Shown here: one piece after another, positions 36,001 through 39,000 of the stretch
Layout: each line of letters starts with the position of its first letter
Numbering within the stretch: the first letter of the stretch is position 1
IMG/VR virus record: IMGVR_UViG_2880378312_000006
Reading direction: 5' to 3' (one strand)
Source of the DNA: a virus
Lineage: Duplodnaviria > Heunggongvirae > Uroviricota > Caudoviricetes
DNA: 64,000 nt
Made by a program: the position numbers

Positions 36001-39000
36001 CAGAGTTTCTGTTTTTCATTCTGTTTATAGTGTTGATGATACCGATATCCCCGCTATTACTGGTCTGGATAATTGGAAGGACATTTGAACCAGTTATTGA
36101 GCTATATACCGATGTGACATGGGAATCATTCAGCGCACTGCACAATAAAATTAATCCGTATAAGGAAAACTGATATGAGCACTATTACCAGAGAACGCGC
36201 GGAGATTAAATCATACATCACAGGCTTCCTGAGCGACTCGGCGCACGATAACAAGTCTTCAGACAGCCTGCTGGCTAATGTGTTTCGTATCGCGCTGGCA
36301 TCACTGGAAGCAGAGCCGATAGCAATGGTAGTGCCTGATGAAATGGATTTGCTTACCTGCCATCTCGACGGTGTAACTAAAACATATGCTGATGGCTGGA
36401 ACGCCTGCCGCGTCGCCATGCTTCAGGCCGGAAACTTTCGGGAAAATAAGAATTCGTCAACCAACAATTTTCGGGAAATCTCGGAAACGTCAACCAGATC
36501 TCCGATAACTCTGGATGGCTGGATAAGCTGTACTGAGCGAATGCCTGAAAAGAGCCAGAACGTGCTTATTTCGATGAATATCGATAGCGAGGCTGGGCCA
36601 TTAATATATTCCGCACGCTATCTCGGAGGCACGTTCCGGCGCGGAGGTATAGCAGTTAGTCCGGGTAATGATCTTAGGCAAGCAACCCACTGGATGTCGC
36701 TACCAGAACCGCCGCAGGAGGTGAATCAATGACCTGGCCTGAAGCATTCACAACGGTAGGAATTGCGATGGCGGTGGCGCTGGTGGTGTATTCGATTTGC
36801 CGCTGGGGATAAAAACGGTTTGCGGGAAAAGGATAGTTAAGTAGAATTGCTGCGGGTGCTTGAGGCTATCTGCCTCGGGCATGAACACCAACGGCAGATA
36901 GAGAAAAGCCCCAGTTAACATTACGCGTCCTGCAAGACGCTTAACATTAATCTGAGGCTCAATCCATGCTGAACACATGTAGGTTAGCCTCTTACGTGCC
37001 GAAAGGCAAGGAGAAGCAGGCTATGAAGCAGCAAAAGGCGATGTTAATCGCCCTGATCGTCATCTGTTTAACCGTCATAGTGACGGCACTGGTAACGAGG
37101 AAAGACCTCTGCGAGGTGCGAATCCGAACCGGTCAGACGGAGGTCGCTGTCTTCGTAGACTACGAATCTGAGAAGTAAGAGACCAGGCGGGGGAGTAATC
37201 TCCCGCCACCTCTGATGTGTCAGGCATCCTCAACGCACCCGCGCTTTACCATACTGAAAATGCTGTTTGAATGTTCATCTCTGAAAGAGGACTATGAATG
37301 AAAAAGGTATTGATTGCAGCACTTATTTCCGGTGTGTCTTTTGGCGCTTTTGCACAGCAGGGTGGTTTCCAGGGGCCAGAAGCAGAGCGTTCAACAGTAG
37401 CGCAGGCAAAAGAACTGAAGGATGATGCATGGGTTATCCTTGAAGGGAGCATCGTTAAAAAAGTGGGTGATGAACGTTATGAGTTTCGTGACAATAGCGG
37501 GACAATTGTCACGGATATTGATGACAGCGTATGGGCCGGGCAGAATGTTTCTCCGAAAGACAAAGTAAGAATTGAGGGTGAAATTGATAAAGACCTGAGC
37601 AGTGTTGAAGTTGATGTAAAGGCACTGAAATTATTAAAGTAACCGCCCCTGCTTGTTAAGCCCGTCTTACTGACGGGTTTTCTGTTTGTACATTCCGGCG
37701 TATTGCCTTACAATTCGCGCAGTCAGCCTGAACAACTGACACCTGCTGTCACCGGAGAATCCGATGACACAACACATAAAATCCCACAATTCTGAAGCCG
37801 ACCCGGAAATTAAGCAGGGGAGGCGTTTTCGTGCGCCTCAGTATGGCTGGTTTCACTATCTGTTCTGTACGATCGATGAGGCAGATATGCTTCAAGAGGC
37901 GTATCTGCGTCGCGGTGTCCGTGTGGAGCGGAGTCTGAACGCTGATCGTCTGACCTGGACCGTTTCTGTATATCTTCCTGTTCGTGCACATCTGCCACGG
38001 ACACATGCCTGCTACCGTCAGCGCGTCTGGAGGTAATGTGCGGGTATTACTTCGACCTGTTCTGGTTCCGGAACTCGGGCTGGTGGTCCTTAAGCCCGGT
38101 CGTGAATCATTGCCAGTTTTTCATCGCGGCAGGGTGCTGGTGGAGCCGGAACCGAAAAACATGCGGGCGCTGCCATCTGGAGCGGTTCCTGCTGTTCGCC
38201 AGCCGCTGGCGGAAGATAAATCACTGCTGCCATTTTTCAGCGATGAGCGGGTGATTCGTGCAGCTGGCGGCGCTGGTGCACTGTCTGACTGGTTATTACG
38301 TCACGTGAAATCCTGCCAGTGGCCACACGGCGATTATCATCACAGCGAAACCGTTATTCACAGTTACGGTGCTGGCGCAATGGTGTTGTGCTGGCACTGC
38401 GACAACCAGCTGCGCGACCAGACCTCCGAATCACTTGAGCAACTTACTCAACAAAATCTGACAGCCTGGATGATTGACGTCATACGCCATGTAATGAATG
38501 GCACGCAGGAGCGGGAATTATCGCTGGCTGAATTATCCTGGTGGGCAGTCTGCAATCAGGTGGTGGACGCATTACCTGAGGCAGTATCGCGTCGCTCTCT
38601 GGGATTACCGGCGGAAAAAATCCGCTCCGTATACCGTGAAAGCGACATCATACCGGGAGAACAGACCGCCACCAGCATACTGAAGCAGCGCACAAAAAAT
38701 ATTGCGCTACCGCCTCACACCCACCAGCAACAGAACCCACCACAGGAAAAGACGGTGGTCAGCATTGCCGTTGATCCGGAGTCTCCGGAATCCTTCATGA
38801 AACGACCTAAACGTCGCCGCTGGGTAAATGAGAAATACACACGCTGGGTAAAGACACAGCCGTGTGCGTGTTGTGGTAAGCCAGCGGACGATCCTCATCA
38901 TCTGATTGGTCATGGTCAGGGCGGAATGGGAACAAAATCCCACGATATTTTCACGCTACCGCTGTGTCGGGAGCATCACAACGAGCTTCATGCGGATCCG

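Follow-up and report, generated by a model that had tools for sequence, protein, structure and literature searches.

The question raised by a short segment of the tailed-virus record IMGVR_UViG_2880378312_000006 is whether two small nested open reading frames (ORFs) belong to a complete type I toxin-antitoxin locus and, if so, to which one. A preliminary description of this 64,000-nucleotide (nt) stretch, called the window throughout, had read a hok/mok-type locus in the nin-equivalent region, with a 51-amino acid (aa) Hok/Gef peptide starting at the ATG at 37023 inside a longer mok-like frame from 36966. The present analysis bears this out. The locus very probably represents an intact hok/mok/sok cassette, a near-identical second copy of the hokW-sokW locus of the Shiga toxin (Stx) phages 933W and Sp5; it lies in a non-Stx lambdoid prophage of an Escherichia coli O157-type chromosome, within the nin-equivalent region. 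Every sequence-level hok/mok/sok feature that could be tested is present and appears intact. The hokW/mokW/sokW cassette is already known and the window adds one further copy, a correct but ordinary result; the variation among Sok-tail alleles, possible cross-talk with the Stx-phage copy and a small upstream ORF are the only leads that are mildly new.

The ORF list contains exactly the two frames that had been described, and the longer one is identical to MokW of 933W. Residues 25-66 of this 70-aa ORF match the Pfam family HOK_GEF (PF01848) over all 42 model positions (E = 1.1e-22, 79.8 bits versus a cut-off of 22), and the peptide also matches PHROG 251, 'MokW-like host killing', with E = 9.8e-33. 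Alignment with R1 Hok, HokB, and HokC shows that the invariant residues C15, T17, T25, R26, L29, E31, E40, and V41 are all present. The NCBIfam Hok subfamily models remain below their cut-offs (53.6 bits versus 73), indicating that the peptide is a member of the Hok family and not a HokA equivalog. Chance reading frames without a gene, an idea that small ORF size alone might prompt, are refuted by the Pfam and PHROG matches, by the Rfam match of the leader (E = 2e-26, described below), and by a Hok peptide that is unchanged in more than 10,000 blocks of the collection, always lying between replication and Q-type genes while its neighbors vary.

The mok frame has its own Shine-Dalgarno sequence, GAGG at 36954-36957, positioned 8 nt 5′ of an ATG that lies at -57 relative to hok; both this ribosome-binding element and the mok AUG fall inside the Sok-complementary stretch. 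For comparison with other loci, 120 DNA stretches were collected by a DNA-pattern scan of GTDB genomes, of which 74 were retained as distinct loci whose Hok ORF is intact and whose flanks are complete. The mok ATG is found at -57 (in frame) in 24 of these loci and at -58 (in the other frame) in another 24, so that the two positions together account for 48/74. K-12 mokC/hokC and 933W mokW/hokW are annotated in frame, and mokB/hokB are not. An in-frame mok is a normal arrangement. The conserved trait is the position of the mok start and not the sequence of the Mok peptide, which fits the accepted idea that translation through the region matters.

We note that the Tyr47 codon of the toxin (TAC, 37161-37163) sits in CUACGAA (window 37160-37166), which contains a UACG context. 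CUACGAA occupies a 7-nt loop in the predicted fold of the full mRNA, and the isolated segment favors another hairpin. The same CUACGAA is the anticodon-loop sequence of tRNA-Arg2, the natural substrate of TadA. In hokC, hokD, and hokE, the UACG context is found at Tyr codons that TadA recodes to Cys (PMC12214031).

Pairwise alignment of 36800-37300 with 933W (AF125520) yields five differences in 501 columns (496/501 identical, 99%). Two of the substitutions (36800 and 36807) lie 5′ of the hok promoter and a third (36834) in its spacer, while the remaining two are located in the Sok loop (36931) and at the base of the 3′ hairpin (37186). Only 36931 and 37186 fall inside the transcript, where the window carries the allele of the cassettes L134, L136, and L141. 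These two positions were considered as possible lesions and rejected, given that the allele is common to all three cassettes, one position is in a loop, and the other extends a stem. By megablast against phage records, 92 phages contain the region; most of them are Stx-converting, and one is 933W, whose features beneath the match are annotated as mokW, hokW, and 'SokW antisense RNA'. The locus type is annotated in 933W; it was also tested experimentally in 2021 (PMC8621323), and a PHROGs family is named after MokW. The earlier assignment to a type I locus thus agrees with 99% identity to an annotated and experimentally validated hokW-sokW.

Among bacterial records, a 601-bp query is at least 99% identical in 503 RefSeq E. 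coli records. In RefSeq, the rows for this sequence carry just the label 'Hok/Gef family protein', leaving mok, the Sok RNA, and the fold-back elements unannotated. The practical value of the analysis is in annotation, as it supplies the coordinates that these rows lack. A recent survey catalogs hok in thousands of prophages, with up to 18 copies in O157:H7 chromosomes. Our own count gives up to 5-8 Sok-like places per genome.

The Sok-like antisense RNA, which had been expected at approximately 36900-37030, is placed by homology at 36904-36974 on the minus strand, with a promoter reaching 37009. Its sequence equals that of 933W SokW except at 36931, in the hairpin loop. The predicted fold (z = -6.0) begins with some 14 unpaired nt at the 5′ end that are complementary to 36961-36974, a stretch that includes the mok AUG; a long hairpin (~36906-36960) comes next, and the RNA ends in a U-rich tail. 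The Sok RNA of the Sp5 copy has been seen by northern blot (PMC8621323). The sok -35 element is the complement of the hok Shine-Dalgarno region, such that the two overlap on opposite strands. Takada et al. constructed a promoter-less sokW by changing TAGGTTA to CCGGCTC (primers YO-421/422), which abolished the antitoxin effect (PMC8621323). TAGGTTA corresponds to window 36980-36986, and the window sok -10 is identical to the sokW -10 that was mutated; the assignment of the sok promoter rests on this published mutagenesis. A TTGnnn -35 with 16-17 nt spacing occurs in 72/74 loci, with the TTG itself, like part of the -10 region, preset by the search pattern, so that conservation of those bases does not count as evidence. 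At the level of sequence only, the predicted Sok has the properties of a cis-encoded antitoxin RNA, namely its own promoter, a terminator hairpin, and coverage of the mok initiation region.

On the opposite strand, the Rfam model RF01794 'sok' matches 36854-37028 over its whole length (positions 1-157; 113.5 bits, gathering score 59). This match covers 175 nt of the hok-sense (plus) strand, and the model ends in alignment with the hok AUG; it follows that RF01794 marks the hok leader, the complement of Sok, and not the strand encoding Sok. Weaker Rfam matches in the region (ceN48, G-CSF_SLDE, and sR2) were rejected as chance, being far below their gathering scores and belonging to eukaryotic or archaeal families. 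The hexamer TAGAAT is separated by 6 nt (36848-36853) from G36854, the base at which the Rfam model begins. The IncY, hokB, hokC, Atlantibacter, and Salmonella loci likewise keep a TAnnAT hexamer 6-7 nt 5′ of their GGG/GGC 5′ end. The hok -35 is weak and not universal, being absent in the variant L136. This positional conservation is the basis on which we place the putative hok promoter.

The fold-back elements were located by RNA folding and by comparison of loci. The minimum free energy (MFE) fold of 36854-37250 pairs the 5′ end GGGUGCUUGAGG (36854-36865) with CCUCAACGCACCC (37228-37240; z = -6.2), and in it the mok start (36966-36978) is also joined to 37215-37227. Inverted repeats I5 and I3 likewise support the 3′ fold-back region (37215-37240). 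The tac/fbi duplex of the window has an energy of -21.5 kcal/mol versus -13.4 ± 2.3 kcal/mol for shuffled 3′ regions. Averaged over the loci, tac with its own 3′ region reaches -20.6 kcal/mol, compared with -16.5 kcal/mol for the 3′ regions of loci with a different tac and -13.4 ± 2.3 kcal/mol for shuffled ones. Two loci with disrupted leaders, L004 (R1-type, IS150 present) and L006 (Klebsiella), were left out for the 5′ elements. For covariation, the 5′ and 3′ segments of the 74 loci were aligned separately and blind to structure. At 36857-37237, 47 loci have T-A and 21 have C-G; at 36865-37228, 29 have G-C and 21 have A-T. The core pairs (36855-36859 with 37235-37239) form in 68-74 of the 74. 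No covariation is seen for the two bases 5′ of G36854, which fits an mRNA 5′ end at 36854. Compensatory changes across the 74 hok loci support the tac-fbi pairing. The full-length and 3′-shortened RNAs are predicted, with low confidence, to fold differently at the 5′ end. The hairpin just past the stop codon has a conserved stem and a variable loop among the cassettes.

Mosaic relatives delimit the element. Prophage cassettes L134, L136, and L141 and the IncY plasmid cassette L005 have other neighbors, and their similarity to the window starts at ~36812-36838 and ends at ~37243-37250, just past fbi. As only this stretch is shared, we take the functional cassette to extend over approximately 36810-37250, with borders in the mosaic prophages that coincide with the hok promoter and fbi. 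The span 36840-37178 given in the preliminary description lies within the locus and is too short, leaving out at one end the putative hok -35 (36820-36825) and at the other the 3′ untranslated region with fbi (37228-37240). Sok, which that description could not define by eye, and the sok promoter and fold-back elements, which it proposed to place by alignment with hok/sok loci, now have coordinates (Table 1).

Table 1. Coordinates of the hok/mok/sok features in the window
Feature	Position	Strand	Details
Mobile cassette, extent	~36810..37250		shared borders in mosaic relatives
Putative hok promoter	36820..36847	+	-35 TTGCGG (36820-36825), 16-nt spacer, -10 TAGAAT (36842-36847); read from sequence
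hok mRNA leader	36854..37028	+	likely 5′ end G36854 to hok AUG; holds tac, Sok-complementary region, mok start, and hok Shine-Dalgarno
tac	36854..36865	+	GGGTGCTTGAGG; hok mRNA 5′ end, predicted to pair with fbi
Sok antisense RNA gene	36974→36904	-	71 nt; transferred from 933W misc_RNA 'SokW antisense RNA', offset +34213
sok promoter	36981..37009	-	-35 TTGCCT (37009-37004), 17-nt spacer, -10 TAACCT (36986-36981), start near 36974
mok ORF	36966..37178	+	70 aa, ATG start, in frame with hok; from ORF list, identity to 933W MokW, and conserved start position
hok toxin ORF	37023..37178	+	51 aa, MKQQKAMLIALIVICLTVIVTALVTRKDLCEVRIRTGQTEVAVFVDYESEK; Shine-Dalgarno AAGGAG (37008-37013)
GC-rich 3′ hairpin just past stop codon	37186..37207	+	GGCGGGGGAG-TAAT-CTCCCGCC; in full-length and truncated folds
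3′ fold-back region	37215..37240	+	37215-37227 complementary to mok start/Sok target; 37228-37240 is fbi, CCTCAACGCACCC

How such a cassette would operate can be laid out in five steps, which we graded according to whether they are visible in the sequence analyzed here, were demonstrated experimentally for the near-identical Sp5 copy, or are drawn from the paradigm of plasmid R1 (summarized in the introduction of bioRxiv 10.1101/2025.08.07.668861). In the first, drawn from R1, the weak hok promoter would yield a stable hok mRNA starting near 36854. In the full-length RNA, tac would pair with fbi and the mok start with 37215-37227; the pairing is visible in the sequence, and its expected consequence, taken from R1, is that neither translation nor Sok binding would occur. 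Slow 3′ trimming, again as in R1, would remove fbi, and refolding would expose the mok ribosome-binding site. The short-lived 71-nt Sok, made from a promoter that lies within the 5′ region of mok, would then pair with the mok Shine-Dalgarno sequence and AUG and block mok and thereby coupled hok translation, with partial contributions of RNase III and Hfq, as in Sp5. Finally, also by the Sp5 precedent, once sok transcription stops Sok would decay, Hok would be made and inserted into the inner membrane, and cell arrest or lysis would ensue. The trigger in Sp5 is RecA-dependent prophage induction, and prophage loss should act likewise. Mok-hok translational coupling, the inert full-length mRNA, its activation by 3′ trimming, and the refolding are thus presumed for the window by analogy.

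The Sp5 copy provides the experimental background for a role in the prophage. Its HokW is toxic, arrests growth, and is found in the inner membrane, and sokW counteracts it when expressed from its own promoter or in trans, with RNase III and Hfq contributing partly (PMC8621323). Upon mitomycin C treatment, sokW RNA vanishes and hokW mRNA persists, HokW appears in the inner membrane in a RecA-dependent manner approximately 1 h before endolysin, and deletion of the hokW-sokW locus halves the phage yield (PMC8621323). The most likely role of the window cassette is faster lysis and release on induction, a penalty for prophage loss, or both. The host prophage encodes an intact 212-aa CI/LexA-type repressor and the cassette is co-oriented with the early-right operon; between cro and hok, only one weak terminator-like site is predicted (34210-34226). 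Given this orientation and the single weak site, induction may drive sense transcripts through the locus, titrating Sok and interfering with the convergent sok promoter. This route is unproven, and it would explain the rapid RecA-dependent loss of Sok.

The same cassette could instead have been selected mainly as an abortive-infection defense, whereby a lytic superinfecting phage, by stopping transcription in the host, would let Sok decay, and Hok would then kill the cell before the infection cycle is complete. R1 hok/sok on a high-copy plasmid lowered the plating of T4, according to work cited in PMC8621323 and in bioRxiv 10.1101/2025.08.07.668861, and the survey reports an approximately four-fold enrichment of hok genes in prophages, which often carry defense genes. 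The same survey, however, reports that hok is not enriched near defense systems, and the only time a hokW-type locus was tested directly, it aided release of the carrier phage itself (PMC8621323). Defense as the principal role is therefore an unlikely account, and aid to release or a penalty for prophage loss remains our preferred interpretation.

Several points weigh against an active cassette. The reading of the window copy comes from its sequence, with transcript and toxicity results taken from Sp5 and processing presumed from R1. A consensus promoter/terminator scan of 36700-37350 called nothing, as both promoters are under its 9-of-12 threshold, and the promoter assignments consequently rest on homology and published mutagenesis. 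The interval from fbi to the downstream BOF/YgiW gene (37298-37642) contains no predicted intrinsic terminator. The first good one is located at 37658-37680, just past the BOF gene (AAGCCCGTC-TTACT-GACGGGTTT followed by a T-rich tail). With no terminator predicted before 37658, the hok mRNA 3′ end is undefined and the 3′-trimming step is pure analogy. Furthermore, the Sp5 experiments used K-12 lysogens carrying no other hok copies, and lysis was helped only ~2-fold (PMC8621323), and native chromosomal hokA, hokB, and hokC gave no post-segregational killing in earlier work cited in bioRxiv 10.1101/2025.08.07.668861. Variants without the BOF gene (L134 and IncY) have a hairpin directly past fbi, followed by a T-run in L134. 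A family-wide census of terminators 3′ of fbi missed the known R1-type terminators and is not discriminating, and we do not claim the missing terminator as unusual. The hok and BOF/YgiW-like genes may be co-transcribed, and the toxin mRNA may need a different activation route.

A rival reading is that the cassette looks intact and is physiologically silent, its hok mRNA never activated or too weak, a hitch-hiking remnant without effect on the prophage or the host. Besides the weak predicted promoters and the undefined mRNA 3′ end and terminator, silence could come from the other Sok copies in the genome, which could repress hok permanently, and bioRxiv 10.1101/2025.08.07.668861 reports several chromosomal hok loci as not activatable. 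The Sp5 copy, by contrast, differs at two non-critical transcript positions and is expressed, toxic, and Sok-regulated (PMC8621323). A lesion, which the preliminary description had named as evidence against itself, was looked for and none was found: the locus has none of the insertion sequence (IS) insertions, frameshifts, or rearrangements that inactivate K-12 loci. In addition, the exact 601-bp sequence is kept in the RefSeq records cited above. We regard a silent remnant as highly improbable and retain the reading of the locus as an intact hokW-type cassette.

Within the transcript, the cassettes differ most where Sok would recognize its target. A comparison of 15 distinct hokW/hokD-type cassettes puts the highest variability of the transcribed part at the mok start and at Sok's 5′ recognition tail (36958-36981), a peak set in cassettes that are otherwise 90-99% identical. 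At least three alleles exist at 36958-36981: ATCCATGCTGAACACATG in the window and 933W, ATCTATGAACGGCAAATC in L134-type cassettes, and ATCTATGCTTAGCATACG, seen in the comparison with L134/L136/L141 and L005. At 99% identity or more, the window allele occurs in 618 E. coli records; for the second allele the count is 1560. A speculative extension, to which we assign a low likelihood, is that hokW-type cassettes in E. coli prophages form Sok specificity groups. Like alleles, such as those of the window prophage and the Stx2 phages Sp5/933W, would cross-protect in trans and unlike alleles would act independently. If so, cross-protection would damp the induction-triggered release of Hok that was measured in single-lysogen K-12. 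The window carries the Sok recognition sequence of the Stx2-phage copy, and the effect of hokW-sokW on Stx-phage release, measured in K-12 lysogens without a second copy, may differ in O157 strains that have both.

The surrounding 22 kb (window 26000-48000) are 100% identical to cattle E. coli chromosomes, for example CP028680.1, and the lambdoid prophage adjoins an ompW remnant. Its left part contains, in order, integrase, excisionase, exonuclease, and dicB, then the CI/LexA-type repressor, cro, and ydaT, and the O-like and P replication genes. The right part continues with DUF1627, DUF4014, and DUF551, hok, the BOF/YgiW-like gene, DUF968, RusA, and the Q-like DUF1133, followed by tRNAs and the lysis and morphogenesis genes. 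The nin-equivalent placement proposed earlier is correct, as the locus lies between O/P-like replication genes and the DUF968/RusA/Q-like genes.

Upstream of hok, an unannotated ORF at 36729-36812 (+) encodes a hydrophobic peptide of 27 aa, MTWPEAFTTVGIAMAVALVVYSICRWG. It has a strong Shine-Dalgarno sequence (AGGAGG), and its ATG overlaps the DUF551 stop codon (ATGA). In 933W the frame stays open with six amino-acid changes; in L134 it follows another upstream gene and begins with GTG. Neither PHROG nor NCBIfam gave a match. A small membrane protein with a link to the hok cassette is a possible product.

Other observations concern the prophage at large. The CI/LexA-type repressor ORF (31288-31926, -) encodes 212 aa in the window, and the RefSeq row for the identical sequence gives a 112-aa 'LexA family protein', the start codon of which is probably called too far downstream. 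Two further RNA genes reach the Rfam threshold, namely DicF (29593-29644, -) beside dicB and STnc100 (42344-42516, +) just 5′ of a SASA-type esterase gene. Two tRNAs (41322-41394 and 41498-41571, +), Ile and Arg in the RefSeq annotation, also reach it and lie downstream of the Q-like gene. To the left of the integrase (L003 1-11000, window ~14000-25000) is an island of ISEc8, remnants of IS630/IS3/IS256, and the type III effector genes nleG and espM1.

Among known systems, the window cassette is closest to hokW/mokW/sokW of 933W and Sp5. The 51-aa HokW and 70-aa MokW are identical, the sok promoter, tac, and fbi do not differ, the BOF/YgiW gene again follows downstream, and the position between replication and Q-type genes is shared. 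The carrier, however, is a long-tailed lambda-like non-Stx prophage beside the ompW remnant, and the flanking genes further out are different ones (DUF551, DUF968, RusA, and DUF1133). The toxin is also 47/51 identical to that of hokD (relF) in the K-12 cryptic prophage Qin, likewise a lambdoid prophage. K-12 hokD has lost its leader, mok, and sok and sits behind relBE, with a cassette identity of 0.65, whereas the window keeps all regulatory parts.

K-12 hokC (gef)/mokC/sokC encodes a toxin that is 80% identical, with a 69-aa mok in frame at -57 and SokC at the equivalent place, but in K-12 IS186, 20 bp past the stop codon, cuts off the 3′ fold-back region, and the Sok hairpin is ~20 nt shorter. 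A further comparison is with hok/mok/sok (parB) of plasmid R1, the paradigm, whose toxin shares just 43% identity. In R1, mok begins at -58 and in another frame than hok, and that locus is plasmid-borne with demonstrated plasmid stabilization. The overall organization is nevertheless the same in both, comprising the leader, a mok start ~57 nt 5′ of hok, a sok promoter over the hok Shine-Dalgarno sequence, and the tac/fbi fold-back.

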